Assembly: GCA_039621445.1 (NCBI GenBank)
Contig: CP154954.1
Span: forward strand, 16,262,140 to 16,326,139
DNA from: Euglena gracilis
Lineage: Eukaryota
DNA length: 64,000 nt
Direction: 5' to 3'
In this document: in pieces, positions 3,132 through 45,751 of the stretch
Layout: each line of letters starts with the position of its first letter
Numbering within the stretch: the stretch's first letter is position 1
Translations under genes and position numbers: made by a program
The notes under the pieces: model-generated
The model's database searches: none
Told to the model about the DNA's origin: nothing
Seen by the model: only the letters and a program-made list of their open reading frames with translations

Positions 3132-3476
<345 letters not shown>

Positions 3477-7567: not shown

Positions 7568-7672
<105 letters not shown>

Positions 7673-13504: not shown

Positions 13505-13810
13505 ACGGTCAGTGTGCGCATTTGCACACACCGGCGATGTGCGCATTTGTGCACACCTTATTTGTGTTAGTGGTCAATGTACGCATGTGCGCACATCGAC
13601 CACTTTGCCTTTCTTGTGTGAATGGTTGGTGTGCACAAATGCGCACATCGACCATTCACAAAAATACAAGTGGTCGATGTGCGCAAATACGCACACCGAC
13701 CACTCACACAATTGCACAGGTGGCCGGTGTACACGAATGTGCAAATCGACCCTCATTCTGCATATTTATGTCACGTGAAGGTTCCGTTTGACATATGCAC
13801 ATTTCGGTGC
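13505..13810. repeat. Cluster of imperfect palindromes GGTCGATGTGCGCA-NN-TGCGCACATCGACC; copy at ~29010-29315
   Basis: About six variants of gtgcgcatttgcac / gcacaaatgcgcacatcgacc / gtcgatgtgcgcaaatacgcac. Confidence 0.75.
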
Positions 13811-19198: not shown

Positions 19199-19598
<400 letters not shown>

Positions 19599-22171: not shown

Positions 22172-22570
22172 CAGGGTTCGATATAAGGAGGGCGTACATG
22201 GTTTAGGTGGGGGGGTGTCCCCCCCACCCCCCCCCTCCTCGCCCGCAGGGGGGGGGGGCCGGACCCCCCCCCACCTGCAAGGGGGGTCCGGACCGACCCT
22301 CGGGGGGTACCCGGGACCCCCCAAAAAAGGGTCAATTTTTTCCTCCGGCGCTTTGCGCCGAAAATTTTTTGCATTTTTGGCCAACTTTTGGTCGTTTTGG
22401 GGGGTCAAAATTTTTCGGCCCGGCGCAAAGCGCCGGGCCGAAAATTGGTCACCCTGACCGTGCCACTGTTTAGGTGGGGGGGGGGGTGTCGCCCCCCACC
22501 CCCCCCCCCTCCTGGCCCGCAGGGGGGGTCCGGACCACCCCCCCCCCTCCTCTCCTTATATCGAACCCTG
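22172..22570. mobile_element. hAT-type MITE (copy B of 6043-6439)
   Basis: Same TIR CAGGGTTCGATATAAGGAG and TSD CCCCCGGC. Confidence 0.9.
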
Positions 22571-23699
22571 CCCCCGGCGCCAAAGGCGCCAGGGGCCCGA
22601 AAATGGGAATTTTCAAAGGAAATTTGGCTGGGTCGGCGCAGGTACCGTGTGCCTGCTATGGGCAGGCACCCCATACCACAAGGCAACCCCCTCCCCTCCC
22701 CCTGGGGTTGGTAAAAAGAAGCCTGGCCCCGACCCAGGTGGGGGGTTGGCTGCCCGGCATTCAAGGCACCCAGATCCGACCCGGGGGGGGGGGGGGGGTC
22801 ATGCCAAACTGGCACTTGTCCACGGCACGCTGGCGCCGAAGGCTGCGGAAGGTCAGGAAAAGCCCATCACACAGGTGTTAAGTCAATCGATGGTGCAGAA
22901 AGCACTTTTGCTGGCTTAGCCTGGGCGCCCTGTTGAAGCGCGCCAGGCTGAGCAACGTAAGGCTAAACTGCCACAAGCAGACATTTGCTTATGGACCCCG
23001 GGGGGGGGGGGTACTGGCTAGCCAATCGGCCAGACACTGGAAAAAATGGACTGCTAGAACCCGAGGGCGGGGGGGGTGTGTCCGGGGGTACCCCCAACTG
23101 GAAAAAGATTTTTCCTCCGGCGCTGCGCGCCGAGGTGGAAATGAGGTTTTTAATAAGTTTTTGGCTGATTCTGTTCCAAAAATTCCCAAAAATGGCCAAA
23201 ACCGGGCATTTTTGGCCATTTGGAGGGGGGGGGGGTTCCAAAGAAATTTTCCGGCGCTTCGCGCCGGTCACTGAAAAAAAAATTTCCACTAGCTAACCCT
23301 GCTAGCAGACCCCCCCCCCAGGGGGGGTCTGCTAGGAATGCCACTAGCCAAATTTGGACTCGCTGCAGTCCAGCCTCCCCCCCGGGGGGGGGGGTACTGC
23401 AATCCCTTAAGCAGAAGCCTGGACACAAGCCATCGCATTTCCAGCATGGAACGACCCAGGAAAATGGAGGCCGGGGAGGGGGGAAAAGGCCTCTCAACGT
23501 TTCTGCCGTGTCAAACTTTGCATCAATGCGGGAAGATGCAAGTTGCATCTGTAAGTATCCTGAGATCCTGCCAGAGTGAATATCCAACTGATATTTTGGG
23601 CCACATATCAGTGCGGGCTGTGGTGCCTTGTGCTGGCTATTCCCAGAGGGTTTTGCAGAAGTGGGCGGTGGCACAGCGGCACCACGCCACCTGACAACC

Positions 23700-23801
<102 letters not shown>

Positions 23802-25989
23802 CGAGCGCACGCGCGCACACACACACAGGCATGTGCAGGCAAGAACGGTATAGATGGGGCTTGCCCAGTAGGGCTGCAACGATCCAGCCGCTGCCCCAAC
23901 CCTGGGATTAACCACTTATTTTCTTTATTTGCGGTACATTTATTTATGTTGGAAGCTCAGCTCATGAAAACGACAGACCCTAACTAAGCCTTCGCTTGAG
24001 AACCTCCGGGCCTCGACCTCCGAGGGTGCGGACTAAAATTCACTTGCTTGAAAGACAGCAGCTTCAACACAGGGCTGAGGGCAGGAGCAACCCGGGGCTG
24101 AACTGGGCACCAAAAAAAGCGAAAATTGCAAAAAATGTATAAAAAAATGTAGAAAAATGTGGATAATGGCTCAAAACTCGCATCTATGTTGAAAAATGAC
24201 CATATTTGTGAAATTTTGCTGGTTCCCTTCCAGCAAAAAGGTCCAAAAGCAGGATTTTTGTAAATTTGGGAAGATGCTGATTCTGGGAATATGGAATTTT
24301 TTGAGTGAAAAAAAGGCAAAAAAATGACGAAAACTTTGGTATCAGGTATAATCTGGTCCGGGATGCTAAATTTTTCTTGGTCAAATTATTTCTCAACAGA
24401 AATTGGAGAAAAGCCTTTTTTTTAAAAAAAAATTGCCAAATTTTGTCAAAAATTTGTGAATTTTGGCAAATTTTGGCAAATTTGCAACAAAATAACAAAA
24501 AATCACTTCCCTTGTAAACGCTCAATGAATGTCCGGAACTCATTTTGCCTTCCATGCGGAAAAAATGCGGAAAGGGAAAAAAAACTGCAGAAAAAATTGC
24601 GGAAATCGCGGAAAAATTGCGGATATCAGTTTCCCACCCTGAGTGCTACTACCCCCCCCCCCTTGCCCACCGGGGGGGAGGGGTGTCAGTGGGCTGGTTT
24701 GGAGTGCGGCCACGGTAAGCGCCAGCCATCCCCATTGACTGCCGCCCAGATGGGGGACTGGCACAGATTCATTGAACCTCTGCGTGACCCAATGGGGTAG
24801 GGGTCAGAGGGTATTTTTAGGACCCGGGGGGGGGGGGGTCCGGACCCCCACCCACCCCCTGGGAGGAGGGGTCTTGGGGGAACCCTTTTGGGGTCAATTT
24901 TGGGTCCAAAAGAATTTTCGGCGCTTTGCGCCGAAAATGGAGTGAAAACCCTCCTCTGGCGGGGTACCCACTTGTCCCAACCCCAACCCCCAGGGGAGGG
25001 TGAGGGGCTCGGCCTGGACCTGCTCACCCCACTGGGTCACCAAACTATGAAAAAAAAGTCTCTGTTGGTGGGTTTTGAGTCGGTGTTTGACATAAAAACA
25101 TGCAGGGGGGGGATCTGACCGGGAACAAATGGTATGGGGGTGGGGGACCTGGAGGGGGTTTGCCGGTTGGTTCAAGAAAAAGGTGCTGGCTTGGAAGAGA
25201 AAAAAGGGGCTGGCTGGACCTTCTGCCGAGGGGCATCTGGGGGGACAGGTCCGAAGCTGATCTGGAGCCCGAAAGTGGCAAAAAAAAGTCCAAACCCACC
25301 TAGGTTGGGATTTTTCCGCCGGACAGCCCCAGAAAAAAAAAATTCCAATTTTAAAACCATTTTGACCCTTCTTTTGGGGCTTTGTGCTGACGACTTTTGC
25401 GGGCCAGCCCGGCTTTGCCCGGTTGGCCCCAACGTTCCTTCGGCAGACCCCAGCAGGCGGGGTCCACAACCCAGCTGGCGAAGAGGGGGGAAGATGCCGG
25501 CTGGCTTGACCGCCCGGGGGGGGGTCTTTCCGGCTTAAAAAAACCACCGGCTTTATATTTAACAAACCTGCGGGGGGGGGGGGGGGGGGGGGGCTTGTGG
25601 AAGGGGGGGCCTGCTCACGGCTCCCTGTAGGGTATCAGTTTTGAGTCTCGGCCAGGTCCGACCCAGGTAACTTTATCCTAAAATGGCAAACCTCAGCCAG
25701 GCATCGTTTTGAGATGCCTTTAAAACCTTTTAAAAAAAAAACCTCAAAAGTTCAAAAAAAAACTTTGGGTCAAAATGCCTTTAATACCTTCAAAGAAAAA
25801 CTTTGCAAATCATTGCGGCAAAATTTTTGTCGACTGAGCGAAAATGCAGTTGCCAAATCTCCGCAACAGCAAGCCAATTGCCACTGAGGGGAAAAAAAGT
25901 ATTTCTGGCATCGTTTGGAACATGCTTGTGCTTACCGACCGGGGGGGGGAGGGGGGGGGGGGGCTATACGGTGCCTGCCCCTAGCAGGC

Positions 25990-26036
<47 letters not shown>

Positions 26037-29000
26037 TTTGGTCTCTTGGTCCTTCGTGTCCTGTTCGGTCCGGACCCAGAAAATTTTCTTGAAATTTCTT
26101 TGGCTTTTCCGGGCCCCCGGCGCCTTCGGGCCGGGGTCGGAGGGGGGTCGGATCCCCAAAACCTACCCCCCCCCCCCACCGGGGGGTGGGTCGGATCGTG
26201 TGCTATGGGGTGTCCTGCCCTAGCACCCCCCCCCCCCGTGGGGTAGGCACCCGACTAAGTAACGCCTAGATTTGGAACATTGCCAACGCCGGGGAGGGGC
26301 GGCCATCCCCCGAGGGATCCAATCCACCCCCAAAATGATCCATCACTATTTTCGCCCTATTTTTGATCCTTCCGACCCCCGTTGATTCTCGGATGGGCCC
26401 TTGGACCGCCCTCAGGAAACTGAATCTTAGGACATCTTAAAACGGCCTTCCAAACCCCTGAGAAAGTCCTTTACAAACCTTTAATATTTATTTTTTTTGG
26501 TTAGTGGGATTTGGGCAGTAAAATGGGTGGTGGGAAAAAGTTGGCATGTTTTCTTAAAAAAAATGTTCGGGAAACATTTGGGACTCTCTCTATGAATTCC
26601 AACCAAAATTGAATTGGTTCTGAAGCCCCCAAATTTGTAACTTAAACAAAAACGAAAAACTATAAAAAGATCTCTGCCGATGAGATGATGAGATGCTCGA
26701 CCTCTGCAGTGTCCAAGTGGTGTTCTTTTCTGCAGCCGCACCGCCAGACCAAAAAGACGCACCGCCGGCTTTCTGGTCCGCACCGAAATGTCCACACCGG
26801 AAGGTGAAGACCATTTGGTGAGGCAGTCACCAGAAACAGACACATTACAAATTACAGGCACTTTACCCAAATTTTTGTCACCCGTAATTGTTGTCCGCCT
26901 TGTGAGGCCAGGGACGCCTGACCTGTTTCTCCTTTTTGGAGCATGCAATGCTTCCAGCTCAATGATAAAATTGCACAAACGTTAGCACGTATTGACTCTT
27001 GCTCTCAGAAAATCTGGGGACTTCTAGGCCCCAAGCAACCCTTTCAGCCCCAAGCAGTCCTGCGCAGGAGGCAGGGGGCTGAGGGCTGCGAAGTGCCTGC
27101 AAGGCAGGAACCCCGCACCGCTTGAACCAAACTAGGGGTTACTGGGCTTTGGCTGCGGAGGACACACTCAGAGAGTTGGGCAGGGAGGTGCTTGAGCAGG
27201 TTGTTGGGGAGGGGGGTTTCGCACAGGGGTGCTGGCAATGTGCACTGGCCAAAGAATCCGGAAGCCACTGGATGTATGTGTGCTGTGTCTTTTGCTGTCA
27301 CAATAAAGCTGGACAAGAAATGCGCGGCGGCACATTAGTGCTTCGTGTGCCGCACATCGTTGCCAGGAGGCTGAATTTGACCAACCCCGGGTGGGGAAGG
27401 GGGTATCGGAGTTCCGGGTGTGTTTCCATGCAGGCGATACCCCCAGGGGTCATACCTACCTCAGAAATCTGCCCAGAACAGGTCCCTTTGGGGACCCCAG
27501 AAGGGTTTGCACCTTTGCACCGGTGGTGGGGGTCAATCCCCACCACCCATGGGGTTTCGGGCATTCCCAAACTGCCTCCCCCCCCCCAGGGGGCTTGGAC
27601 TCATCTCGCGGGGGAGTGAAAAAAATTTTCGATCGAAAAGGCACTCAAACCCCCACTTTTCATCATTTCGACTTTTTCTTGAAAATAATCTTTTAGGGTC
27701 ATTTTTCCGGGTTTGTCTCAGAAAGAAAATTTCGAAACCCCAATCGCCCAACAATGTCGGCCAATTTCTTAAAGTAAGTACCAGTACTTTGCATCGGAAA
27801 CTTTCGGCTCAACCCATACCCAGGCCCTCCAGCACGAGAGCCACTCTTGTGCATGAAAAGACACAGAGGGCAAAACGTCCAAAATGACGAAAGCCATTTA
27901 TTTATACCACATCATCATACCATGGACCCGGAAGTATTTCCCTTGAACCTGGGATTCTGGGTCTGAGTTGCAGGAGACAGCTCCGCATTTGTGCAGAAAA
28001 AAAATGCGCGGATCATCATGTTCGGGTTGCGCAAGCCAGTGGGGTGAACCAACCCCAGACAGAAAAAACATCACACATGGGGGGGGTCCGAGTCTGGAAG
28101 TGAAGCCGTCACCCCAAAACAAAAGATCAGTCAGCCACCTCCCTCTCTGGGTGGTCTCGGTGTGAAGGAAAACAGCAAAACTCTGGGGTGGAGCCAGGCG
28201 GACCGCCGAGCCAAGCCTCAGCAGGTAGCCTTGGACGACACGGCAGAAGGGGCAAACAGACAGGACGGAAAGGCTTGGAGAGGAGGTCGTCCAAACACCC
28301 ACACCTTGGATCCTAGTGGCGGGATGAAAACTCTATGCCCATTATGGTGCATCCGGGGAGTCCATGTGTTCCCTGTGGCCCACTTTCGAGCGAAAGCCAG
28401 GGGGATTCTTAGGATTAGGGTCACGGCCCCGGATCCCGAGAGCCTCGCCAGGGGGATTTCTTAGGATTAGGGTCACGGCCGGACTCCCGAGAGCTCCCTT
28501 TTTTTTGGAATTTGGCCCTGTTCCGGAAGAAGTTAGGCCGAAGATGGTCAGGAAAATTTAGACAAAAAAGGTCTAGCAGGCTTTCTGGGCGGCGGATCTC
28601 GCACTTCAGCTTTTTTTTTCTTTGTTGATGTGGGCAAATGCTCGCCTCGACATTTTCTTATGTAAGTCCTAAACCGGCTGACCGCACCTGGAGATATGTT
28701 TGTTACGAGTTTTGCAACACCCATCAGGAAACACAAAGGTTTCAAACCAATTTTATTATCCTAACGAGCGGTGTAATTACATCCTGAGCGACAGCTTGTG
28801 TTTCTGTCTGTCAAACAGGTTGGATGTACACGCTGGTTGTTGCGCCCAGAGGTATTGGTGTGTACGTGCCGCCTGTTCTTGCTGTGTGTTGCATCCGAGT
28901 TTTGTGCCGAGCGATGCCACCATTTTGAACTTCTAGAAAAAAAGGCAGGTGGTATGTTTCTTGTGGTAATAAAAATAATTTAGATACCTAACTTCAGATG

Positions 29001-32000
29001 AACCAGACACGGTCAGTGTGCGCATTTGCACACACCGGCGATGTGCGCATTTGTGCACACCTTATTTGTGTTAGTGGTCAATGTACGCATGTGCGCGCAT
29101 CGACCACTTTGCCTTTCTTGTGTGAATGGTTGGTGTGCACAAATGCGCACATCGACCATTCACAAAAATACAAGTGGTCGATGTGCGCAAATACGCACAC
29201 AGACCACTCACACAATTGCACAGGTGGCCGGTGTACACGAATGTGCAAATCGACCCTCATTCTGCATATTTATGTCACGCGAAGGTTCCGTTCGACACAT
29301 GCACATTTCGGTGCCTTATAAGTGGAAGTGTTCTGAAAAGGTTCTGTCATGCCATGATCATTGTCTAAGAAAAGTTGGGGCAAGGTTTTTGAATGGCTAC
29401 CAGTTCCAATGTGCGACAGAGAACGGTGGCTTGTAAATGTGTCTTTGTTTTGACCTCCGTATTTGGCTGTCTCTTCGCCCTAAACGGTTGGCATGCGCAC
29501 TTGCGCACACCAACCATTGTGGAGGCAAAACTTTTGCAACTTGCGTGGTGAAGAAATTCTGGTTTCAGGTAATAAGGAATGTTCAGTTGAACAAGCTCTA
29601 TGACAGGAGAAAACTGGTCCATCTGCAGGTTTGTTTGTGTTGTCTCCAACCCACACAGCCCATCGTGTTCACGCCATCCGTTTGGAAGGTGCGTGGGAGG
29701 AACTGATGAATTGGAACCCCCGTGACTTTTGGACACTTTTCTTCAAAAACAACGAGTTCCAGAATTTCAAAATTGCACATGTGTAATCTTCCGGTTATTT
29801 CGGCAAGTATCATTTTTCTGTTTTCACCACGATGATGTCTCTCTTTTTTTTTCCATCAGAAAACAGGAATCACGCCAGTTTTTGTGCATAATATCTGTGT
29901 GTTGAGTTCCAGTACTTTCTCACACCCCATTAATCCGCAAAAATTCAATGTTCTCTGTCTCCAAAACAGTGGGATTTGTGGCCACATTTATGATGCTGCA
30001 ATTTTCCATTGTTTCCGTGGAGCTGCAGCATGTCTGCCCCACCCCCCGTCTGCTGTCCCAGTTGTGGTGGATAACACGACCACCCCCGTGGCTCTGAAGG
30101 GTTGATGACAGCCTTGTGGCTGCTGAAGCGCCACCACCTGTCCTCAGTTGGGCATCTGTTTCGGCAAGCTGGTAACCTGTAGGGAATGATTATCACGAGT
30201 GAAGAGTGAAACATATCTCTTTTTTTGAAAACTCGAGCTTTACACTTGGCTACTTGAGCCTCCCTGTCTGGTTGACTCTGCAGAGGCTCCTTCAGATAAC
30301 CTGGAAGGCAGGTTGCATTTTTGTTTTGCAGGTACACAGGGTTCGCACCCCCCCCACCAGGGTGGGCTCGTACTCCAAATTTGGGCAGTGAAAATCCTAG
30401 TGGACCACCCGGGGGGGGGGGGGGATTCTGCCAGCAGGCCAGAAAGTGGATCATTTTTTCCAGTGACCAGTTTTTTTGAATCCCCAAAACCCGCCAAAAA
30501 CACCCATTTTTGGTCATTTCTGGGATTTCTTTTGTGGGACAAAGTCAGCTAAAACACACATAGAAAACCACGTTTCCACCACGGCACGCAACGCTGAAGG
30601 AAAATATTTTATTGTCGGGGGGACCCCCCAGACCACCGGCACGATCATGTGCACCTGCGCACGTAGGGACACCCCACCTTCACGCGCACACTTGCGCACA
30701 ATTTGAACCCACAATCGCACGCATATGCAGACGCTTGGAGGGTAAGTTTGGGCGGCGTGTGAATCAGCGCTGGGGCACCCAGAACGGTCGGCGACACTCG
30801 CCACTAACCCCCAGTGGCTGCAGGACCACGAGTCGGCCGCCGAAAAACTACGGAACACACAGCAGGTGACAGGAACACACCCCCTTCGCCGCCCGTGTTG
30901 GAAATCCCGAGCCAGATGGACCCACACCCAGCACCGAACCGCGCGAACCTGCGCCTGTGGACACACACACTTCGTGCCCACTTGAGCACGACTGAGGGCA
31001 GGTTGAGGGACCCTGTGACCCGGGCTGAAAACCCAGGCAGAGACGTGATGCTTCACGCAAGTGTCGTGCGTATGTCCGCACGTTAGTCACCCCCCAGCTC
31101 TTCGTCTGCGCGGCCCTATTTTGAAGCCCCTGCCAGCAAGCACGTCGCAGGGAGGCAGCCACTGTCCAGGCACAGCACCGGGCGGGTGAGGCCTTGAAGG
31201 TGGTCATGGAAGAGGGGTCTTTGGTGGCCGGGGTCGCGCGCATGTGCGCCTAATTGGGGGTCTTTGAGGAAAGAATCACATGTCTGAAAATGTGATGAAC
31301 GGGGGGTTAAACCTCATTGAGCAACACGGTAGAAACCTCCCACACTATTGGTTCTGAAACGCACCTCAAAACGCCCTGATTTATTGCGATAGCTGACATT
31401 GGTACGGCAGTCGCAAGGAGGGGGGCGGCGCGTATGACCAACCTGGGGTTGAAGGAACCAAGTCGGTGGCAGGGGGGGGTACATGGACAAGGCCTCGTTT
31501 TTTGAATTTGGGTCCAGGGTGCCTTCTTTTTGGGCAAGTCCGATTTCGACTGGTGTTCATGTTGTGTGCAATCCAGAAACCGGGTCTGTGGAGGGGGGGT
31601 ATCTCAAAAACAGACCAAACCTGCAACCCCCGACCAGACCGAAAGTTTTTGGTCTCCCAAAACAGTCAAAAGTGCCATTTTGGGCACTTTCTGGGCAAAA
31701 ATTTGTCAAAAAATCAGGGGGTATTGATTTCGGAGACCTTCGGGGAAATTGCAGGAAAATTGCAGAAATTGCAGAAAAAATTGCGGAAAAAATGCAGTTT
31801 TGGGAATGAGTAAACCCCCCACTTCTAATTAATAATTAGTAAACCTATCCTATAACCCCCCCACGTATACCCCCCCCCTGGGCCCGACCACCAAAGCGTG
31901 ACTATAATCTCTAATAATAATAATAATTAATATACATATCCCCCCCCTAGAGGGAAAAGTGGCTAAGACTTAGGCGGCGTAAATTGCCCATGAAAAAATT

Positions 32001-33648
32001 GACTGAAGTGGCACCCGGAACAGTAGAAAAATGCTCCAAAAAACAGCCAAAATTTTCGAGTTGTGCATCAGGACAGAAATTTTTCAGCGTTATTGCGTAT
32101 GTAACAGACGAAGCGGAAAACCGCTTCGATAATTTCTGAAATTCATTTTTAGTAGATTCACAGGTAAATACGACGCAGCAAAAAGGTTGCAGAAAACCTA
32201 CCACAATCGACACACAACGAATGATGTCATCTGTCAAGCAGACACACAGAGACAGAAAAAGAATATATACATAGCAAATACCTGCGAGCAACTAACGAAT
32301 CAGTATAACAAGGAAATTTAAGTAAAATGCCGAATGAAGCGGAATACCGCTTCATCGACACCCAGAGTCGTGATATTACATTAAGTGCAACTGAATCAGA
32401 GGTAACAGGAATACATGTACAATTATGCTGTACAGGATAAAAAGGAGGAGAGACCACGTTGCACCTTTGTGATCAACTCGACCTGACACCGACGTTGGCC
32501 ACCGTCGGTGTCGGTTGTTCCTGTGGGCTGCCGGGGCCGCAAGCGGCGGAAGCAGGCACCTGGCAGCCCCGTGGCTCCCCGCCTTGCATTGCCAGAGACA
32601 GACTGGTTTTAGGCCTAAACAGAATGAAAAACTAACATTTGAGGTTTGTGGTGCACTTGGCGGTTTGGTGGTTGTGTAGTGCGCGGAACAAATGCGTAGG
32701 TCCATGAGAAGCAGATAATGAATACAACGCAAGCGGTTTTCCGCTTCCTTTGCACGTAATGGACACAATTTCACAAAAAGGGGAGAGGCTGGACCGGGTC
32801 CAATTCACTTCCCCGTACCCCTGAACGGTGCCCAGCCGTCAGGGGTTCGGTTACGGCTTTTGCTGGACCAGGCAGGCGAGCGTACAGTCCAGGCTCCCCG
32901 TTCATCGCAGTACATACACGTTACGTAGTGTACGATGAACCTTGCGCATTGCACTTTGTGGTTCAGTCAAACGTTAAACGGTTAACAACATCGCGCATCG
33001 CATTGCAATGCGGACGAACGCACTCAGAATACAACGACAGAATGAACATGAAGCGGTTTTCCGCTTCTTTTTAATAAGATGAGCAATATGCTTAATGTCC
33101 ATCGCAAAGTGAGGTACATAACTGTTTACCGGTTGCGTGTACCATGAACAGGACACCAATCGTCATCTTAGCATCCAAATTGAAGAACTAAGTTACAGTG
33201 GTGTACCGAAGTCAAGATTGGTCCACTGCAACTCGTTGTGCACGTATCTCCGCCTGTGCTACGACACTTGCGCTGAGTTCATCGAGTCCATGAGAAGTCC
33301 TCTGCAAACATGACCTTGGCGGAGTTTTTATTATCAAAGTCAGGATGGAAGACAGTTTTATATGTCCAACAGATGAAAATGAAGCGGAAAACCGCTTCAC
33401 CTACGCCTGAAATCGCGATGCCGTCTGTTCATACCGAGTGATGTGACCACAAAGTACTACATTGTCCAGACCCCATGCATTCAGGTAGTTTAACTGAATG
33501 TGCTCTTCGGGCTGCCGCTGGCAATGGCCAGCAAAGGCCGTATGTGGCGGGGACTGCCCACCCCTCCCACGTACTGTCTGTGGTTCCCTACCAGTGACAG
33601 CCTCCTTTTTTGCTTTTACTGGAGGCAGCGGGAATCCACTTCATACGT

Positions 33649-33921
33649 GTGGGTAGCGACTGTGATCACCCAGGCAGTCGGGTTCATCAGTGCAGATTGG
33701 ACTCAATTTGCTGGACGATGTTTACTTTCTGGTGCAGTGCTAAGTCACATTGGTATGGACAGCTGAAGAAAGACGTGAGGTCAGTGTATATACCGAGATC
33801 AAGATACTACATACGCCTGTGATGTTGTGATTAGTTGGTTAGTCCGCAGGGCAGGGTAGTGACTGTGATCACGGCAGGCAGTCAAGCAAATGTGGGTAGT
33901 GACTGTGATCACCCAGGCGGT
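33649..33921. repeat. Three ~30-bp direct repeats GGGTAGTGACTGTGATCACCCAGGCAGTC
   Basis: Copies at ~33649, ~33854 and ~33892, with palindromic core GTGATCAC. Confidence 0.85.
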
Positions 33922-34395
33922 TGTACCAAAAAAACATGCATTAATTTAAAATGAGACAGAATAGGAAGCGTTTTTCCGCTTCCTGAAAAAATGGAAGAAA
34001 AAATACGTAAATCCAACCCTACGTTTCTGAATCGCGAGGTTTCTAACCGACGTAAAATGGCAGTTGTACCACCAACCACATCAATTCACCATAAGTTCCT
34101 AGGTACTCGTGTTTTGGGAAGGATTTTACCTGACATCGCGCTCTGGATGCGCCCATTTTGAGAGACCAACGTCCTGTTGCACCCCCCGTTTCAAAATCAG
34201 AATACCAAACAGCACCCCAAAAACAGCACTACCGTCCAAATGAAGCGGAAAACCGCTTCATAAATGAAACTATAAGCTATTTAACAAACAGTTCTGAGTT
34301 TAATGTGTTATAAACACCAGATTGCCAAGAGGAAGCGGTTATCCGCTTCCTTTTCTGTCAGTATATCCGTATCTGCCCATTGAAACAGAGAACAC

Positions 34396-37135
34396 ATGCC
34401 CGCTGTTGCATCGCCTGTCCAATTGGTCCTGAACATTCGGGGCCTTCGCGCCTATTTGCAACATGGCAGGCCTCGTTCGGGATGGGGCCTATTTTACGAT
34501 GCTTGCGTAGCTCGTCAAGTAGGTGCCCAAGCAATTGTTTCACTGTGCTGCATGGTGCGGCTGAATCGACGTTCACGTCGCACAGTGGAAGCGGTGCGGG
34601 AGGCCTACATGCGGTCTTCGTCTCACCGTCCACGTTGGCTGGGACAGCTCGCCACTGGGGCGTATGCTGTGTGGCGTACGCTGCATCGACATCGACATCG
34701 ACATCGGCATCGACAGGCACAACCCCTTGCAGACCCCAGTACAGTGGCCGAGAACAATCCCAGCATGCGGGCACTGCAGCAGCTTCCGAGGGCAATGCGG
34801 AGAACTCTACGGCACACTGGCATGGTGGGTTGTACGGAGGTGCCGGTTGCAGCCCGGGCAGCAGTGGCGGAGCGGGACATCCTGGCCTCCCTGGGGAACC
34901 ACCAGGTTGTCCTCTGGCTGGACAACTTCTGCTGGCTATGCTGGGGAACGGACCCGGCCACCCCAAACCTGAGCCAGAACCTCACTGCTTTTGGAACAGT
35001 GCAGGGTATAAATCATACTGATGTGTGCATGATTCAATGAATCACTGGTTGGATCCTGAAGCAGTTAAGAATTAAACGACTTTCGGTGAATGGTAATGAA
35101 GCGGAAAACCGCTTCATTAGTACTCAATATGTTTGCATGGTTGTTTGTGGTTCAACTGTAACAAGTAAATGATTCAGAAGCATGGTAACACCCGTACTTT
35201 GCACTGATGACGCTTTCTGCAGCTGGAGAACCTGTTGCACCGACAGGGGACGAGGACACGTTCCTTGACCTTCCCGGTGTCTCCAGGACACCCAGAGCTG
35301 AGCGACCTGATTGGCAACTTGGAGGTGGTGGCGTCCTCCTGTTGTACCGCATCGTTGCTGCTGCACCAAGCCGTGGGTCGCATACGACGGATGCAGCTGA
35401 CGGAGACAAGTATCAGGGTGCCGCTGGATGTGGCGCGGACCGACATGCGGTCACTGCAGTGGCGTCCGCTGTCGCTGACCGAGCAGGTGGTGTTAGCCAA
35501 CCTGGACCTGCTGCTGGTGCTGCAGACGGCGAAGTCACTGCAGCACCTCACTCGTCGCCAAACGCCTCTCCTGGTGGATGAGAACATCCACTACCGGTGT
35601 ATGCGGCTGCTGTACTCTGCATCGGCATCGCGGTACTACGTGTCCCGCTATCTGGCCGAGGTCCCCCTGTTGTACGGCATCTGGCACGCGTACAAACACA
35701 CGGTGATCGTCGTGTACCGGGCGTTCTTCCCGGTGCTGGCCCACCTGGAGGTGTCCCCTGGTGACCACCACTTGACGTGCAGCCTGCGGAGCCACCGGAA
35801 AGTGCTGTACATGGAGAAGCTGTTTGCCAGCCTTCTGTTGTCCCGCGAGTCGGTCATGTCCCACTCTGAGTCGCGCATAGCACCAGGGAAGCGGTTTTCC
35901 GCTTGCTTGACGTTCACTGATGCAATTTCATGATGTATGTGACATGCTATCTGCGATTCAGTAGTCAACTGGCAACCAGAATGGGAGATTGGAGTCGCTC
36001 TGGGAGTACACGAGCTGAACAACAGCAGCAACTCCGGTCCTACCCGTACCAGCTGCTGCAACGGCTGTGGAACATCCTGGTCTTATATGCCCCGGCCTTG
36101 CTGCACCTGGGACATGAGGTCCGACAGTGTACCTGGAGAGGTAGACCCGAGGACGAGGTGAAGGGCACCACCGCTCGGCTGGTGCTGCAGAAGTGCCTCC
36201 TGCTGATGTTGCACCTGGAGCGCCTGATGAGTCCCGGAAGGCCGCCCTCGGAGTACCAGCGGACCATCTCCCTGGCCCTGCTGGGGTGGCAGGACTGGAT
36301 GTCCCGGCTGCCGGGCTGCGTGTTCGTGGAGGAGGCTGGTGAGGCCATGCTGTCGAGGTTGTCCTCTGCCTGCAAGCGGAATCCCCACGTGACCAGCTTC
36401 GAGGGTACGCTGCAGCTGTTCGTGAACCTCGGCGAGCCCTCCGGCAAAACTCACCACAGCCGTGGCAGCCTCCGGAAGCAGCTCGTGCAGGAGATGGCAC
36501 GTCGTGTTCGTGGCCTGCTTGGCAGCCCTGGTGACCGTCCATTTCCGAAGCGGGTGGACAGCACAACCGTGCGGTGGCTGGTGGACCCAGAGACCTACCC
36601 CACCTGGATGGCACCGGAACCTCCACCAACGCGGATGACCACTGAGCAGCTGCTGCCCGTCCTGCGACACTCCGTGCAGACGCTGGTCCGAGGACAGCGC
36701 CTCGCTGCAGACGTGGAGGAGTGGCTCAGGACCAACGTGGGCACTGTTGATCCAGATATTCTGCAAGAAAGAGAAGAGGCGGTGTACCCCTTCCTCGCGC
36801 GCAGAAGAAGCAGGGCTGCCACAGCGGAACATCCTCTTCAGCATCCAGATGAAGCGGAAAACCGCTTGCACGACACGGATGAAGCGGATACCTGCTTCGA
36901 TGTCAACTCAGCTGAGATGGAGGTGGCAGAGGCCTCGATCGTGGTGGGTGACCAGGAGGAAGGCAGCAGTCTGTACGAGCCACCGGAGTCCCTCTACGAG
37001 CCGCCCGGTGACTTATCGGACGGCTACGTGTCCGTGGGGGCCTCCGACGGATTGGACTGGCTGGGCTCACTGCAAGGCAGTGATATATCCGATGCTTCGT
37101 CGGACGTATCCGTAGCAGTGGTGTGTAAATGCTGA
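34396..37135 (+). CDS. Putative DDE transposase, Academ/DUF6589-like (~800 aa, 3 exons)
   Basis: Exons ~34396-34998, 35223-35848 and 35962-37135, joined by phase-compatible GT-AG introns, with strongly GC3-biased codons. Motifs in order: VVLWLDNF (D1), PLLVDENIH (D2), YGIWHAYKH (GxF/WH motif), VFVEEAGEAMLS (E). Acidic C-terminal tail. Family call is from remembered motifs. Confidence 0.7.
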
Positions 37136-37496
37136 TTGCTGTTTGTGGGAGATTTCTGTTGTATATACGGTATTTGGGACACGTTGGGTTCACACGCTGG
37201 CTATTACTAACTAATACATAGGCAAATATGAGCATACCGGACCATGACCACTACAGACAACAAGAAAAGGGATGCCTTTTTTAAACATGGTGCTGTTTGG
37301 TCCAGGTTGGCAGTGTAAAATGGAGAGTGTTTTGAAAACAACAAGCAAAATCAAAAAAATAACCAATTTCGTTGGGTTTTATAAGTTCTTTTTTGGGAAA
37401 TAAATGATGCAAATCCATTCAACTCAGCTTTATTTTCCACAGATTGGATGATTATGTACATATTTTTCGATTTTTTTTCTTCACAGACCAGTACAC

Positions 37497-40400
37497 ATGC
37501 CTGCGAAGAAGCTGGCGAAGGCAGACACCACGGGACAGTCGATCCCGAAGCTGCTGGAAGACGAGGAGATGTGGCTGCAGAGGGAACAGGGTTAGATTTG
37601 TGGTTCCTTTTGGTGAATGAACATATATCGATTGGTAAGTGTTGACATTCTTCAATGAAGCAAACATTCAGAAGCATTGACAGATAAAAAATCACTTTGG
37701 TCAACTAATGAAGCGGAAACACGCTTCATTGCTGTGAATTGCATTATTTCTCCCACAAAAGAAATATATCTTAACTAACCCTGTAGTCGGGCAGCTGGTC
37801 CTGGACGTTGACCTGAGCCGGGGGCAGGTCCGGTGGCCCCGTCAGGAGCACGTGAACGACCTCATCACCGAGCTGAAGAACAATCCGCCGCAGGAGCTGG
37901 TGCTGACAGTGTGGCCGGAGAGAGGTGTCCACCAGCCCCCTCCATATTGTGTTTGTCGTTCCTGTGGATCAGACCCCCACACTTCAAATTGGTTGTTTGC
38001 CGGAAGTGGGTTGGCACTTTGGACATAGGTTCTGTGTTTCTCTGTTTCATCATATGGAAATCATCATGCGTTGTGTGGGGCAATGGATCGTTTCTGAATG
38101 TGTTCCCCTCTTCGCAGCTACGGGGAAGTGGGTCATCCTGAGTGGTCAACATCGTTTCCTGGCCGCGTCGGCCATCGCCGACGCCGCCATCGCCGATGCC
38201 CGGCGGCCGCCAGCCTTCACGGAGAAGTTCCGGTGCAAGGTGGTGAAGGAGAACACCAGCATCATCGAGCGCCAGCAGCTGGCCGGCGGGTTGCAGGCCA
38301 TGGACGGCAGCGTCATGGACATGACCCTGGCGGACCGCCTGCACTGGCTGCTGAAAGAGGACACCCACAACCGGGAGATTGCCGAGGCGGAAGGGGTGGC
38401 GTACAACCCCACCAAGACGGAGCTGTTGAAGAACGTGTACAGCAAGACGGGATGCCGCGAGACCGTGGACGGTGCCCTGGTATGTTCTGTCGCCTATGGA
38501 TGATTGTGCAGCCCAGAATGATTATATGATATTTAATGATTGATGGCATATTCAGTCTGTAGTCAGTTTGTTGTTGGTGGTTTTCAAATGCGATCGCAAA
38601 AAGAAGCGTTTTCCCGCTTCATTACCCTCCCGTTTTTAATTTTTACCCTTCTCAGGGTACGTGGGTCAAAGCCATGATCCCGGTCACGGAGTGGGTGCTG
38701 CAGAGTGGGACCGAGGCTGTGGAGGTGGTGAAGAGGATGGAGGCCCGTGGTGGGGACCGTGTGTCCCCACACACGTTCAAATGCCTGGAGGCCATCTACC
38801 ACCCGGACGACTACGCGGAGCTGGCCCAGGTGATGTTGGACGAGAAGTCCAAGCCCACCACCCAGCGGCTGGTCCAGTCTCCACATTTTGCATTCCACAT
38901 CTGGCGGATGGTTGTAATTCCCGAAAATAAAGAGGGATTTTTCAACAACAATGCAGACAGGAAGCGTGTTTCCGCTTCGTACGTAAACTTTTAATTTTTA
39001 ATGTATAATTGTGTTCATAGTATTCACCCACTCATCCAAAATACAAAATGGAGTCTGCTGCCAGGCAGGAGACGGCGAAGCTGGTGCGCCGCAGGACCTG
39101 GACGTGGCTGCTGCAGCACCCGGAGCTGGATGCCGACGTTCTTCACCCGACCAGAAGTGTGTGCTGTTTAATTATTTGCATTAATCATATGCGTGCACGT
39201 CTAAGAACTGCTGGCTTTCTCCATTTTTGATAACTGGTTCTTTACATGGATAAAATTCAGTCTGTATCATGAAGCGTTTTTCATATTCATTTAGCCAATT
39301 TGTGTTTTTTTTTGCAGAGGACCTGGCGCAGGTGGCCGCGCTGGAGACCGCCCTGCAGCCGGAGCACGTGAAGGTGCCGATGACCGGGGTGAAGTGGAGG
39401 TGGTCGCCCGAAGCCCCCTGCGTGGGGACCAACTTCTGCTTTGTAAAAACAATTCTCGTTTCACAGCCTGGAGTGAATGCACCCCTCCCAGTGAATGCAT
39501 GCACACCCCTCTCTGATGTGATGTCAGTTATTCCCCGGCATTGGCCACCTGTCGAGGTAGTACGCCGCGCGCCGCTGTGGGCCGACCCCCTGTACGAGGG
39601 ACTGAGGCAGCGGCTGCTGGGCCCAGTGATGGAGCCCGTCGTCAAGATCGGGGGCGTCTTCGGCACCCTGGACCTGCACGGCATGAGCCTGCCTGGCCGT
39701 GGACCGTCAACGCCCGGCAAACCAAAGAAACCGGAGGAGGAGGTGTCCAGCACCCAGGAGATCTCCACGCCGGGCCGGGCCTCGGCCAAGCGGGCCACCC
39801 AGCCTGAGGTGCTGAAGACCGGCCTCATCCACGTGGTGCCCATGCAGTCCACGGACAACGCCTGGCCGAAGGACCTCCGTCTGCTGGACCTGGCAGCTGT
39901 GGTGGTGGAGGTGGAGCCCCAGCAGTTCGCCGACAATGACAGCGTGCATACCGAGGTGTTCAGGCTCATGCTGACGGGGGTGCCCATGATCGCCGTCGGG
40001 AGGGACATCGACCTGCGAGATCTCCAAGCGCGGCTGACGAAGATGCTGGCCAGTGAGATGACCGTCTTCCGCAAGGACATCGTCCTCTTCATCCCGCAGT
40101 CGGGGCCCGACCCGGACTGGATCTGGGCGCGAAGGACCCTGTCTGTGATCACCACAAACAAGAAGACGATGAAGGTGCACCATCTATTTTATTTTATGAT
40201 GAAGCGGAAAAGCGCTTCCTGTTAATGAGAGCAGTTCTTTTCTTTTCTTGTCTATGTCATAGTGAATGCATACATGTACATCGTACAAAACAGAAAATCC
40301 TTGTCCCTTCCCGTCGTAGGACCCCGGCCAGATCACCTTGCAGGGGATGCACCAGGTCCCGGATTGCACTTAGCATGCCAGTTAAGAATGTTGTCTTCAG

Positions 40401-41638
40401 TTTTCATACTTCAAGCATGAACTTGTGTCCCTGTTGTTGAGGGCAGTGTCAACCAACCTCGTTAGTTTTTGGCGATGTCTGTTTTGAAGTGCAACCCGGT
40501 GCACCTGACGTTGCCCATCTTGTTCCTGTGGAGGTCGTCTGGTGGTTCCTGCGGCGGCTGGAGGTGGCCACCACTGACTGGGTGATGGTGCTGAGTTCCC
40601 GACCGGTGCTGTCCGCCCAGCTGGCCGTGCGGGCGGGCAGCGCCATCAACCTGCTGTGGGGCGTGCCGGCCCTCCCCTCCGACGACGCAGAGGCCCAGCA
40701 GCACTGCCTGGAGGACATCGGCCTCGAAGTGAGGGTGGCCGACGGGCTACCGCCGGTGATCTGGGTGCAGGGTAGCCCAGGCTTCTGTCTCTTACTTTCA
40801 CCGAACTTTAATTTCACATGGTTTGTCATTTAACGAATGCAAAAGCAAATCACCTGGTTCATTCTATGTCTTTTTTTCTGGATTTAACAATTGAAGCGTA
40901 AAACCGCTTCAAATTACTTTGCTTAAATTTTTTTTGCTGTTTTGTATCTGTATTACAATTCCCTTCTGATTCCGGATAAAATAATTTCATTGGGTTGCCC
41001 TGTGGTCAAGGACGTCCACCTGAGGATCGTACGCCACCTGGCCCTGAACGTGTCCGGGTACATCCCGGAGGGGACGGAGCCGGCCCCCGCACCACCGACG
41101 GAGGAGGAGCCCCCGTCCAAGCAGGGCGGCCGGGACCCGAAGGAGTCCAAGTCCAAGGAGACCAAGGAGTCCCAGGACAAGCCCAAGGAGAAGGAGACCA
41201 AGGACAAGCAGGACAAGAAGACCAAGGACACGCCCAAGAAGGGCGCCCGGGGGAAGCAGTCCGCCTCCTCGCAGCAGCCGGCCCGGCACTCCTACGAGTC
41301 GTCCCCGGAACCGCCTGAGCGCCCGACACACAGGGAACGGCCTAATGGTGGATTGTCTGTGATGATCTTATGTCCTGTTTCGATTTTGGCAGTAATTTTC
41401 ACAATTCTGTTTGATGGAGAGTTTTTCCGCTTCCTTATGATTAAAATCAGAGTAATTTTCCTAAGATTGGAAGTGCGTTCACGTTCTACTGTAAATTGGT
41501 TCCGCTGCGATGCAACACAATGGTATCTAATCAAAACCGTTATCTGCGTTCCACGCCTCCCGTTTGCGCCGCTCCCTGTTGCCGAGGAAGCGGTCCGCCC
41601 TGGAGAACATCCAGGAGATGCTGGTGGACGACGAGTGA
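37497..41638 (+). CDS. Multi-exon protein: ParB/Srx-like N-terminal domain, degenerate N6/N4 DNA-MTase-like region, K/E-rich tail
   Basis: Phase-consistent exons 37497-37590, 37787-37924, 38118-38479, 38656-38871, ~39054-39156, 39318-40174 (possible internal intron), 40320-40355, ~40490-40770, ~40990-41345 and ~41585-41638. Later boundaries are approximate. The spliced N-terminus reads ...SRGQVRWPRQEHVNDLITELKNNPPQELVLTVWPERATGKWVILSGQHRFLAA, a ParB-type xxGxHR motif. Confidence 0.75.
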
Positions 41639-43122
41639 GCGGGCGGCTGCGGCGGCCGCGGTGGCAGCGGGCGGCTGGTGCCGCCAGCGAGGGAGGGACA
41701 AGCGAGACCCAGACCCAGACCGGACCAGACCCATACCCACACCCAGACCCAGTCCCCAATCATGCGCACACCTTCGCCACACCACACCCACCCATTTCGC
41801 TGTTTTCTTTCCTTTGTGTTTGCCTTTGGCATGGCTGCGGAACTGGGGGCTGTGGGGTTTGCTCCAGCTGTGACCTTTGTTTTGAGAATCAAAGTTACAA
41901 ACCCACAACTTGCTCGGTTTAGGTTCTTTTCTTCGTGATACAATGCATCTTCTCAATATTGTTTGATGCGGGATTCACGTTTGTTGGTTACTTCAAGTTT
42001 GGCATATGTCATTACATTTTACATTCAGTTGGCTCAGTGATGTTGGCAATGTACTTAATTTGGGACCAGTACAATACAGTTTGTTTTGGACTTATTTCCT
42101 TCTCTCCGATTTGAGGAAGCGGAAAACCGCTTCATCGTTTTCCTGATTGTTTTTGCAGGTTTTCCCTCCTACCCGCTTACGATGGCCCAGTACCTCAAGT
42201 GCGGACTTTGACTACAGGTCTGTATCGTTCTGTGTCTTACATTTGTAAACCATTTGTTGTGGCTGTAATGTCTTCTGGGAAATGTACTAGTTAAACTTAA
42301 TGCCAATGATTACTACTGAGTGCGTGCGGTTCATCACACCCCTCCGGAAATGCTGAACGAATGTATGTTGACATTATTATTCACTGTTTGAAATGCATAC
42401 CCTTCCATCTGATTTGTCCTATAATTTTACCGTTTCTCATTAAAGCGGTTTTCCGCTTCCTTTTCGTTTTTGGAAAATTTTCTTGACTTTGCATTGCTAA
42501 TCCGTTTGGTATGATTCTTCCGGTGTCGATTTCGGTGACATGTGAATGATTTTGAAGCGGAATGTCATTTTTACCGCTTCCTATGTTTTGTATTTATTAT
42601 TTTCCCCCTTTTGCAGAGGGTTTCGCCTTCTTCTGTCTCCGGTGGCAGCCGACATGAGGTGTGTATTTGCACTTTATTGCTGTCTTTGAAATTTCTGTAG
42701 GGTTTTCGTTCATTTAGACTAAATTTCAAAATTTTAGTGCCATTTCAGGTGGTTTTGGGGTTTTCTAAAACTTCGTTACTGCAAGCCAAACGTCCAATCA
42801 GAAATGGCCGAAATCGGTACCTCTTCTAAAACCTTCAAAAAAAAACAGGCCGTTTTTGGAAGCGTTTTTCCGCTTCCTTTTCCGTTTCGAGGGGGTTTAA
42901 ATTTTTGGGCAGTTTATGCCTCCTAAGTAAGAAGCAAGTGGCAAAAAGGGCGTGGTGGGCATGCCAATTTATCCGAGACCAACGTTTTCGCAATTCTCTT
43001 TGGCAGTTTTGGATCAAGAAATTCCACATTTCCAGAATCAGCATGTTTCCAAATTTACAAGAAGCATGTTTTTTGGACCTTTTTGTTGGAAAAACTGTGA
43101 ATAACGGCTCAAAGCTTACACC

Positions 43123-43556
43123 TACCCCCCCCCAATTAGAAGCCCCCCGGGGCTACTATTCGGTCACTCTGCGGAAAACCCGAGGGGGGGGGGGGCTTCT
43201 AATTGGGTACCCTTTGTCTAAAGGAAAAACTTCAGCCGGCGGTCGATCCGGGGATCGAACGGGGTCCAAGTTTAAAAATTTGCAAGACTCATTTTTTCTA
43301 GTTTTTGGGTGGATAGGCCATGTTTCAAGGATACCAGATATCAATTTCGTTCCCAATGTTGACCTTTTTTCATGGAGAATTTTCGAGGTTTTCACCATTT
43401 TTCTGAAAAATTTTCGTCAAATTTCCCCCAGCTTTGCCGGGGGAGGGGGGGGTGGGCTGTTATTTGGATTTTTGGCGGGAAACCTGAGGGGGGGGGGGGC
43501 TTCTATTTGGGGGGGGTTGTTATTTGGGGGGGGGGGGGCTTCTAATTGGGGGGGTT
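43123..43556. mobile_element. MITE-like element with CCCCCCAATTAGAAGCCCC inverted repeats
   Basis: cccccaattagaagcccc near 43130 is inverted at ggggcttctaattggggg near 43535, with internal variants. TSD not resolved. Confidence 0.5.
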
Positions 43557-45751
43557 TATGTTGCCAAATGGCCAAATTTGTGATAATTTCCTCAGTTTCC
43601 TCCAGCAGAAGTGCAACCCCACCCTACTTATAACCCCCCCCGGGGTTATAGGTTCCTGTTTGGTGGTCGGTCCCAAGGGGGGTTGGGGGGGTTATACGTC
43701 AAGGTTTCGTGTGTGGCCAAAAACGGGTCCAAAAATTCCCTCTATTTTTGCACCAGGAGGGTAAAACAAGGGATTTTGGGCAGTTTTATGGTTTTGGCCA
43801 ACTTGGGAGGAATTATTTCCCAGCAGAAGTTGGGGGGGAAATCTAAAAAAGGCCGAGAAATTGCCAATTTTTTGACAATATTTGTAAAATTAAGCAAATT
43901 TGGCAAATTTGCAACAAAATAACAAACAAGAGCACCTGGGTTCCCTTGTGAAAGGTTGTCGGAACTCATTTCACCTTCCATTTCAGGTTTATGCGGAAAA
44001 TTGCGGAAGGGGAAAGAAATTGTTGAAAAATTTCGGAAAATTGCAGATAAATGCGGGAAATTACGGAATTTGTGGAAAAATTGTGGATACCCATTTCCTC
44101 CTGCAAAAATGCAAAAAAAATTGGTGCAAAGCGCCGGAAGGAAAAATTTGACTTTGGGGGGGGGCGGGTACCCCCCCCGCATTCAGTCCGGACCCCCTTG
44201 GCAGGTGGGGAGGTCCGTCCAGGAGGGGGGGGGACACCCCCACCTAAACCACGCCTAAACTACCCACACCTAAACACCCCCACCTAAACTACGCCCTCCT
44301 TCTATCGAACCCTGCCTTGGGGGGTCCGGCGAAACCACCCCCTACACCCCCCCAGGTTGGGTATAGAAAGAATTGTGGGTGGGTCCACTTCTGCTACCGC
44401 TGCTGCCATTCCACAGACTGCTCCCAGTCAGGTCTGGCTTCAGGGTAGGAGAGCCCAATGGCGTGCTGGGTTGCCCACCCGCCGTTCTCTGCTCTGCGGG
44501 AGAGGATATCGTATAACAAGGCCCATGGCAGGATTGCCGGTGAAATGAGCCGCGCATCGGAGGTGGGACATTGCACAGCAGCACCCCACTGAGGTGTAAT
44601 GGGAGTATCGTGCGGCTTTACAGCTCCACAGGGGGGAAAGAGGGAACCCTGGGGGGGGGGTCAAAAGAGGGTGTGACCTTCCTGAAAAGCCTGGATTCCT
44701 TGTTGATACCAGGCAATTGTTACGTGCATTAACACTAATCTCTTAACTGTTCGTTGACACATCTCTCTCTCTCTGCCTGTTTGTTAGTTTGTTTACAGGT
44801 TTTTCTGTCTGGTTGGCTGTCTGTCAGTATGTGTGAAGGTCAGGGGCCCATTCACTTAGACTCGTTCACTAGGCTCGAAAAAAAATGCAAAAAAAAAACG
44901 ACAAACAAGCGCTAAATTGAAAACAAATAAAAAACTGCAGTATGCCCAGAAAGGAAATTGCATCCCCAGAAATGTAAAAAAAAATGCACAAGGGAGAGAA
45001 ATTGATCGAAAGATAACTGCAAAGCGAAGCAAAGAAAAAAGAATGTCAATTGTGAAAGGAAAAAGGTGAAAATCACAAAAAAGTGAAAATTCCCTCAAAA
45101 ACTGCTCAAAACTGCACAATCTGTATTTTTTGCAAAAAAATGCAAAAAAAAAAGGTTAAAATGTACAGCACATCCCTCTCCGCTGTCTGTGTGTGTGCCT
45201 GTCTGTGCATCTATTCTCAGGGCGTCGCTCAACAACCCCTGTCAGGGGCAACGCCCCCAAAGCCCTCACCACATCCGGGACGGTGTTGCACGCAGTGAGA
45301 CGCCGCCTCTTCGCCATAGGCACAGCGTGCGTGTGGCGTGGACTCGGTGGCAGCAACCATCCTGTGGCAACAACGGCCAATTCTAACCCAAAAACAAGAC
45401 CCCCTGCCGGTTTTGAGCAAAAATCCAAAACTAGACCCCAAAAAACAATCCCTCGGGATGTTTGGGGGAAATACAAAAATGGACTCCCCAAAAAAACTGT
45501 GAAAATGCCCCCAAAACGGAGTATTTTGGACGTGTTTGATTTTGCCCACCAGTTTTTTGAGGTAATTTTTCGCTCACCAGCAAGAGCCACTCTTTTTTGG
45601 ACTTCTGTTTGGACTCCCCCCCCCCCGCGCAGGAAGGTTTTCTGCTGCCGAAATTTCAGCAAAAATAAACAAATAATACAAAACAGACCCCCCGAAAAAA
45701 GAGCACCCCATTGGGATTTTCAGCAACGGACCAAAAAAGAAGACCCAGGGT

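Follow-up and report, generated by a model that had tools for sequence, protein, structure and literature searches.

ParB-type proteins are a textbook bacterial device: they load at short palindromes and spread over the neighbouring DNA. Here, we describe a transposon of Euglena gracilis which encodes a protein with a predicted ParB fold and carries its own set of palindromes. The element lies at positions 31969-42927 of a 64,000-nucleotide stretch of contig CP154954.1 (assembly GCA_039621445.1, positions 16,262,140 to 16,326,139 of the forward strand), referred to below as the window. It is an apparently autonomous cut-and-paste DNA transposon, present in multiple copies in its host, and contains a gene for a DDE-type transposase (gene 1), a gene for the ParB-like protein (gene 2), and 19 copies of an 18-bp palindrome. 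The ParB-like protein may read these palindromes and act on the element that encodes it.

ParB-like proteins on mobile elements

ParB relatives are also found on bacterial mobile elements. KorB of plasmid RK2 is both a sliding clamp and a repressor, which loads at the OB operator palindromes and slides to distant promoters (PMC11790492). In Shigella, the ParB relative VirB, whose sites are virS, is an anti-silencer (PMC10770331). As described in the relevant passages of these papers, both cases involve a ParB-family protein, short palindromes on a mobile element and effects on transcription over kilobases, and in these respects they are akin to the arrangement considered here. However, they are bacterial and CTP-dependent and have the canonical box II, whereas the Euglena protein is eukaryotic and its box reads Gly-Gln-His-Arg/Lys. 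The ParABS system, for its part, resembles the locus in the fold of the N-terminal domain (Z 9.6-10.5) and in having several palindromic sites. It differs in that the sites of the Euglena element are dispersed rather than clustered and in that an integrated transposon has no obvious need for segregation. No ParA-type Pfam family was matched by 10 open reading frame (ORF) pieces of the element at E<=1, and the partition of an excised form therefore seems unlikely.

In eukaryotes, ParB-like proteins have been reported from algal transposons. According to the relevant section of a preprint on the genome of the red alga Bostrychia, PAG3 is found in giant Plavaka (EnSpm/CACTA) transposons of 17-19 kb, along with two other accessory genes. 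In PAG3, a ParB-like N-terminus is joined to a 2OG oxygenase, tandem inverted-repeat arrays adjoin the gene, and the authors suggest that the protein binds and modifies its own element (10.1101/2025.02.11.637652). In the brown alga Ectocarpus, the element Sola1-1_Ec32 carries a ParB-like/DNA-methyltransferase accessory gene; for similar proteins of green algal transposons, the passage on it points to a review from 2011 (PMC12477816). The same passage mentions no cognate repeats, unlike the element described here. PAG3, as the preprint presents it, is close to the Euglena case: an accessory protein of a eukaryotic DNA transposon has a ParB-like N-terminus, and inverted repeats within the element are proposed as its own sites. 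The Euglena case differs in that searches with its protein revealed neither an oxygenase nor any other enzyme domain, and in that the presumed sites occur singly, scattered over 11 kb and partly within introns. Furthermore, the Euglena transposase matches no Pfam family, Plavaka included, which sets the element apart from PAG3 as it is described.

A preliminary description of the Euglena locus, made from the DNA alone, had interpreted the element as a possible self-coating system and named no precedent. This reading is plausible and in part supported: a transposon bounded by inverted repeats and a TSD, a DDE-type transposase, the ParB/Srx fold (the latter two by the folds of relatives) and a palindrome private to the element within the window were all found. 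The claim of no precedent falls, because ParB-type cargo with adjacent inverted-repeat arrays and the idea of self-binding are already in print in the parts of the literature that deal with PAG3, next to the Ectocarpus cargo. To our knowledge, self-binding by ParB-like transposon proteins has been proposed in two 2025 algal genome papers and has had no experimental test so far. New with respect to these cases are a different transposase family, a ParB-fold family that is invisible to sequence profiles, the lack of a recognisable enzyme domain, and sites which are single and dispersed through introns and both ends. Transposon accessory proteins that bind many short cognate sites in the non-coding DNA of their own element are also represented by VANC of VANDAL21, an anti-silencing factor, and by TnpA of En/Spm. 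Their folds are unrelated to that of the ParB-like protein, and the TnpA sites are restricted to subterminal regions.

The element and its ParB-fold protein

The element is 10,959 bp long and apparently intact. It is bounded by 22-bp terminal inverted repeats at 31969-31990 (plus strand) and 42906-42927 (minus strand). Nineteen of their 22 positions agree, and the inverted-repeat search returned these two ends as the sole matches within the window (0.01 expected by chance). Directly outside, the sequence reads TAAGA on both sides (31964-31968 and 42928-42932), which gives a target-site duplication (TSD) of 5 bp, or of 4 bp if the boundary is moved by one base; this length is based on one copy. 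The 11-kb unit with inverted repeats and a TSD that had been delimited earlier is thereby borne out. For Academ transposons, the passage on their TSDs gives 3-4 bp (AcademX) or 9-10 bp (AcademH) (PMC10045372). A single duplication of 5 bp, or 4 bp with the shifted boundary, does not settle whether the element is one of them, and the comparison with Academ made in the preliminary description is unsupported. XPG nucleases or helicases are the cargo of Academ elements, and no Pfam family of either kind was found in the 10 ORF pieces, and no empty insertion site is present in the 64-kb window.

In one DNA run of the host, which may itself be the source of the assembly, 14,833 contigs align to 13 kb at 95% identity or more, and 5,319 of them at 99% or more. 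The element family is therefore highly repeated and diverged. Terminal inverted repeats, a TSD and many copies, as found in cut-and-paste transposons, are thus all present. The alignments of the DNA run also contain joints, whose shorter side mostly consists of 21-30 letters ending at a palindrome copy. We read these joints as the aligner jumping from one motif copy to another rather than as evidence of deletion derivatives.

The N-terminal part of gene 2 (37497-39156, plus strand) consists of five exons: 37497-37590, 37787-37924, 38118-38479, 38656-38876 and 39065-39156. The first three join in frame, and the splice search and the phases read from the DNA agree. Exon 2 shares 40% identity with residues 47-88 of the relative P0075 (E 3e-10); between exon 3 and residues 109-226 of P0075, the identity is 37% (E 2e-23). 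The gap between both matches coincides with a stretch of low confidence in the P0075 model (residues 91-103). Exons 3, 4 and 5 are collinear with P0064 and P0090, two relatives that read through, and therefore belong together. When exon 3 was used as the query of an exhaustive HMMER search, 93 relatives were obtained, and for 20 of these the E-value was 1e-10 or lower. Almost all are exon-sized; in P0075, P0096 and P0131, the ORF reads through and includes the upstream half as well. No full-length relative of gene 2 was found among the proteins longer than 210 aa. The relatives of gene 2 (P0061-P0153) are exon-sized or read-through proteins of at most 366 aa, and three longer ones are partial matches in several stretches.

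Structure prediction followed by Foldseek, proposed earlier as a check, was run on relatives of both proteins. The model of P0075 has a predicted local distance difference test (pLDDT) score of 84. Its best Foldseek match is ParB (6sdk, E 6e-4), followed by KorB, Noc and sulfiredoxin. In the VIA comparison, it was matched to the Myxococcus ParB 7bnr with a Z of 10.5 and a root-mean-square deviation of 2.5 Å over 95 residues. The first 32 VIA matches are ParB, Noc, KorB, PadC, pNOB8 ParB, sulfiredoxins, SerK/SbnI kinases and two structural-genomics proteins; the next one stands at Z 4.7. The KorB chains reach Z 8.1-8.4. The alignments continue into the helices at residues 154-223, over 149-157 residues for pNOB8 ParB-N, 132 for KorB and 119 for the Caulobacter ParB with parS. 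On the evidence of this model, the N-terminal domain of gene 2 is a ParB nucleotide-binding-domain fold followed by helices. A ParB-type N-terminus had already been suspected from the letters, and it is the fold of the relative, and no sequence profile, that bears this out.

Residues G115, Q116 and H117 of P0075 are invariant in 58 of 58 relatives and are followed by Arg or Lys. The helix 116-131 starts directly after the strand 110-114, and we take this strand-to-helix junction with its Gly-Gln-His to be the place of the Gly-Glu-Arg-Arg box (box II) of ParB. A Gly-Gln-Val/Ile-Arg motif precedes helix 1 of the domain. The Gly-Gln-His motif also presumably resembles DGQHR. The DndB and DGQHR models gave no match to 7 relatives in NCBIfam at E<=5 or to 8 relatives in Pfam. 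Likewise, no ParB family of Pfam was found on the ORF pieces of the window or on 8 relatives. A language-model search with P0075 placed it nearest to clusters of ParB_N (0.93), of the fungal DUF3723 (0.93) and of DUF6551 (0.91), which serve as leads only.

As a separate observation, the DUF3723 clusters are as near as ParB_N to the relatives of 37789-38479 (P0075). We take DUF3723 to be a common accessory gene of the giant Starship elements, and the similarity is a lead for recurring ParB-fold accessory proteins in giant eukaryotic mobile elements. Among the papers searched, none contained both DUF3723 and ParB.

The ParB fold is not confined to DNA-binding clamps. The domain could be an enzyme or a nucleotide sensor, such as a nuclease, a kinase or an NTPase, involved in transposition or DNA modification, while another domain or protein reads the palindromes. 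Sulfiredoxins and SerK/SbnI kinases share the fold (Z 6.4-8.0), as does SspE (Z 4.0-4.4), and the invariant Gln-His after the Gly differs from the Glu-Arg that we take to be the rule in ParB. The algal ParB-like domains in print, as their sources describe them, are fused to an oxygenase or a methyltransferase. However, the ParB, Noc and KorB clamps rank clearly higher (Z 8.1-10.5), the DndBCDE-DndI chain reaches only Z 2.9, and searches of Pfam, PDB sequences and relatives detected no catalytic domain in the rest of gene 2. We therefore regard an enzymatic or sensor role as quite unlikely.

Further coding exons follow on the plus strand (39318-41347). The coding score and the splice model give 39318-39421, 39557-40174, 40320-40355, 40534-40764 and 41011-41347, with a tail rich in Lys and Glu at the end. 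They may form the C-terminal part of gene 2 or else a gene of their own. No Pfam family above the threshold and no PDB match better than E 4.8 were obtained for them, and the single relative found is P0154 (93% identity). The exon 39557-40174 gave a weak lead (0.88) to P-loop GTPase-like clusters, which is not relied on.

The palindrome and its candidate binders

The 18-bp palindrome consists of two 7-bp arms around an A4/T4 spacer. At two mismatches or fewer, the stretch from 32110 to 42876 contains 19 matches, and the other 53 kb of the window contain none. The number expected by chance, derived from dinucleotide-preserving shuffles, is 0.00. When any A/T spacer and up to three mismatches are allowed, 23 matches are obtained, again all within the element. 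The 7-mer half-sites occur 34 times inside the element and 7 times in the 53 kb outside. The preliminary description had counted about 20 palindromes along the whole element and none elsewhere in the window; this was confirmed, and its coordinates were accurate. The motif is an imperfect palindrome in that its 4-base spacer has A4 on one strand only, the plus strand in 10 copies and the minus strand in 9. Together with its flanks, the consensus measures about 22 bp: 18 of the 19 copies have an A at position -2, and 11 have a T at position +2. A dyad of 18-22 bp whose half-sites are spaced by one helical turn would fit a helix-turn-helix protein that binds as a dimer. At 42554-42580, a variant is found in which both 7-bp arms are intact and the spacer has 13 nt instead of 4 nt.

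The copies are single and dispersed, with spacings of 90-1240 bp. Eight lie in the 2.4 kb upstream of gene 1, in the 5' non-coding region at 31991-34395 (32110, 32336, 32730, 33050, 33381, 33965, 34242 and 34332). Each of the two introns of gene 1 has one (35098 and 35888), and another falls in the acidic tail of its product (36851). Gene 2 accounts for five more, all in non-coding gaps: three in introns of its N-terminal part (37710, 38603 and 38961) and two between the downstream exons (40201 and 40893). The last three (42116, 42442 and 42859) lie within the final 0.8 kb, in the 3' non-coding region (41348-42905), which also holds the split copy. Neither terminal region has a convincing coding signal, and the coding-score scan of 31991-34395 gave two weak coding-like 90-nt windows on the plus strand and none on the minus strand. 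By the exon model, about 42% of the element is coding, and 18 of the 19 palindromes are in non-coding DNA. Random placement would give this with odds of about 5e-4 (our own binomial estimate). The palindromes are therefore retained at places where they leave the proteins undisturbed, yet they span the whole unit.

This distribution also bears on the role of the host. The motif could be read by a host factor, as a transcription-factor site reused as an enhancer, or it could act as an intronic RNA hairpin with a 7-bp stem. Its core presumably resembles an E2F-type site, eight copies are in a promoter position upstream of gene 1, and seven are intronic, where either orientation gives the same stem. 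The lack of any copy in 53 kb of neighbouring host DNA would nevertheless be odd for a host factor site. In addition, three copies are found downstream of all predicted exons, the orientation is random (10 plus, 9 minus), and a stem of 7 bp is a weak RNA signal. A host factor or an RNA hairpin is thus very unlikely to account for the motif.

Gene 1 (34396-37135, plus strand) encodes a DDE-type transposase of 792 aa and has the exons 34396-34998, 35223-35869 and 36007-37135. This structure was obtained by alignment with relatives and by re-reading the splice junctions. The introns, of 224 and 137 nt, are bounded by GT-AG. Exons are GC-rich and introns AT-rich. The product has no internal stop and is 43-44% identical over about 780 aa to P0001, P0002, P0005 and P0007. 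The boundary of exon 1 and the intron 36741-36911 in the automatic splice model were replaced after this alignment and re-reading. A further idea, that the motif sits exactly on non-canonical splice donors, was dropped, as each of the three junctions checked had a canonical GT-AG solution. The palindrome at 36851 falls in the acidic C-terminal tail, which is poorly conserved and disordered. In exon 1, an in-frame His-Arg run of five HR pairs (34570-34600), a short tandem repeat, distinguishes gene 1 from all 18 full-length relatives aligned.

At least 60 relatives of the exon stretch 35223-35852 (210 aa) are present in environmental data, among the matches listed down to E 3e-18, and many have 750-810 aa. 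These 60 carry no Pfam domain and no name beyond "hypothetical protein", and an exact look-up of 10 proteins of both families returned no accessions and no informative names. The Pfam transposase families, including Plavaka and KDZ, matched neither 10 full-length relatives nor the ORFs of the window. The relatives (P0001-P0060) are uninterrupted ORFs of 750-810 aa on contigs of about 3 kb, which gives them a transcript-like look.

A model with a pLDDT of 85 was obtained for P0005, a relative which shares 43% identity with gene 1 across 790 columns. With residues 151-570 of this model, VIA matched the P-element transposase (Z 9.9 over 290 residues), Hermes (9.6), ISCth4 (7.8), Transib (7.4) and RAG1 (6.9). 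The first 27 matches are all DDE/RNase H-like transposase-type enzymes, and the 28th falls to Z 3.3. The Foldseek E-values are weak (best 0.03). The first 150 residues or so form a confidently modelled helical domain. Residues D181, D327 and E530/E531 are invariant in 13 full-length relatives, and gene 1 has LWLDN at 173, LLVDEN at 317 and FVEE at 523. From the order of secondary structures in the model, we infer that these acidic residues are the putative catalytic triad. The model points to a DDE transposase with an RNase H-like core into which an all-helical domain is inserted, the arrangement of P, hAT, Transib and RAG1. Having a transposase fold and no Pfam match, it belongs to a family that Pfam does not model. 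A transposase-like gene had been noted earlier, and the fold of P0005 and the acidic motifs bear this out.

The transposase is itself a candidate binder. The palindromes would then be its binding sites, in the manner of the subterminal repeats found in hAT, CACTA and P elements, and would assist the assembly of the transposition complex, and the ParB-like protein would act otherwise. Indeed, the outermost 2.4 kb and 0.8 kb of the element hold 11 of the 19 copies, of which those closest to the inverted repeats are 120 bp and 30 bp away from them. The structure is closest to P and hAT enzymes, which we take to use internal or subterminal sites, and the predicted N-terminal helical domain of about 150 residues could bind DNA. 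By contrast, eight copies lie deep inside the element, up to 5 kb from either end, where a transposase would not need them. The motif is also a dyad, whereas we take the end-binding sites of transposases to be usually asymmetric, and the inverted repeats themselves do not contain it. On balance, binding by the transposase is rather unlikely, and is the main alternative to binding by the ParB-like protein.

Proposed function and wider context

The following division of labour is proposed. The DDE transposase encoded by gene 1 would move the element, and the product of gene 2 would be an accessory protein. The approximately 20 palindromes would be cis-acting sites for a dimeric DNA-binding protein encoded by the element, most likely the ParB-like protein. 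With sites in promoter-side, intronic and 3' non-coding DNA, this protein would mark or coat the element along its full length, and only the element. Its purpose would be self-recognition for the regulation of the element, whether it counteracts silencing by the host or adjusts transcription of the element itself. It would in this respect be similar to KorB and VirB, and to the structurally unrelated VANC of the plant VANDAL transposons. Bringing the ends of the element together is a second-choice role. We consider it an even chance that the ParB-like protein reads the palindromes as a dimer for such self-directed marking or regulation; the binder of the motif, a nucleotide dependence and the purpose are what we infer here. 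By analogy with KorB and VirB, self-directed regulation or protection from silencing is the favoured purpose. A more specific version, in which the protein is a nucleotide-gated eukaryotic clamp that loads at its private palindromes, slides, and coats the transposon without a fused modifying enzyme, seems unlikely.

Several observations weigh against binding by the ParB-like protein. At the sequence level, Pfam ParB_N (PF02195) matched 1 of the 58 relatives, with E 0.042 and below the threshold; NCBIfam gave no ParB family for 7 relatives; and a profile of 58 sequences run against the PDB sequences matched 5 chains, of which none is a ParB and none has an E below 0.22. The fold was predicted on P0075, which is 37-40% identical to the exons of the window and contains a read-through intron. 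Each kb of the terminal regions holds 3-4 copies of the motif, each kb of the interior about 1, and such a terminal enrichment is the pattern of transposase-binding subterminal repeats. The support from RNA is minimal, with 24, 28 and 81 aligned reads from three RNA runs. Finally, the relatives of gene 1 are full-length ORFs of 770-800 aa, whereas those of gene 2 are exon-sized pieces only.

The three RNA runs contained no splice joints, and the exon models therefore rest on the coding score, GT-AG sites and relatives. Related elements were also searched for elsewhere. A metagenome scan gave one locus of 1.2 kb with a partial relative of gene 1 only, and nothing was found in scans of viral contigs. 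It may be that genes 1 and 2 are expressed differently, or that they are not always carried together.

The surroundings of the element are repetitive. Positions 1-15643 and 16066-31283 form a tandem duplication of about 16 kb, with 98-100% identity over most 300-nt blocks, which is unrelated to the element. It holds microsatellite-like arrays of 8-12 bp and long C/G homopolymer runs. The offset between its two units drifts from 16,067 to 15,463 bp, and they therefore differ by indels. Inverted repeats rich in C/G homopolymers bracket the element at 31872-31895 and 43659-43682 (24 nt, 92% complementary), and further ones are found at 43120-43560. Without the element, the bracketing repeats would be about 0.8 kb apart, which suggests that the transposon inserted into another small repeat. 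Downstream, ten long ORFs between 44000 and 64000 matched no Pfam family at E<=0.001, and this part probably consists of further unclassified repeats.

The element is a compact and apparently intact case: one transposase, one ParB-like gene with no recognisable enzyme domain, and a defined site of 18-22 bp repeated about 20 times. A short oligonucleotide and a single recombinant protein would suffice to test directly whether the transposon marks itself with a site-specific coat of its own. Two protein families without a Pfam name are added as well, a DDE transposase with at least 60 environmental relatives and a ParB-fold family with 93. If the ParB-like protein does form a clamp coat, this coat would keep host heterochromatin off or switch the genes of the element, much as VirB and KorB do. 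A bacterial-type system of loading sites and clamp would then be at work on nuclear chromatin.

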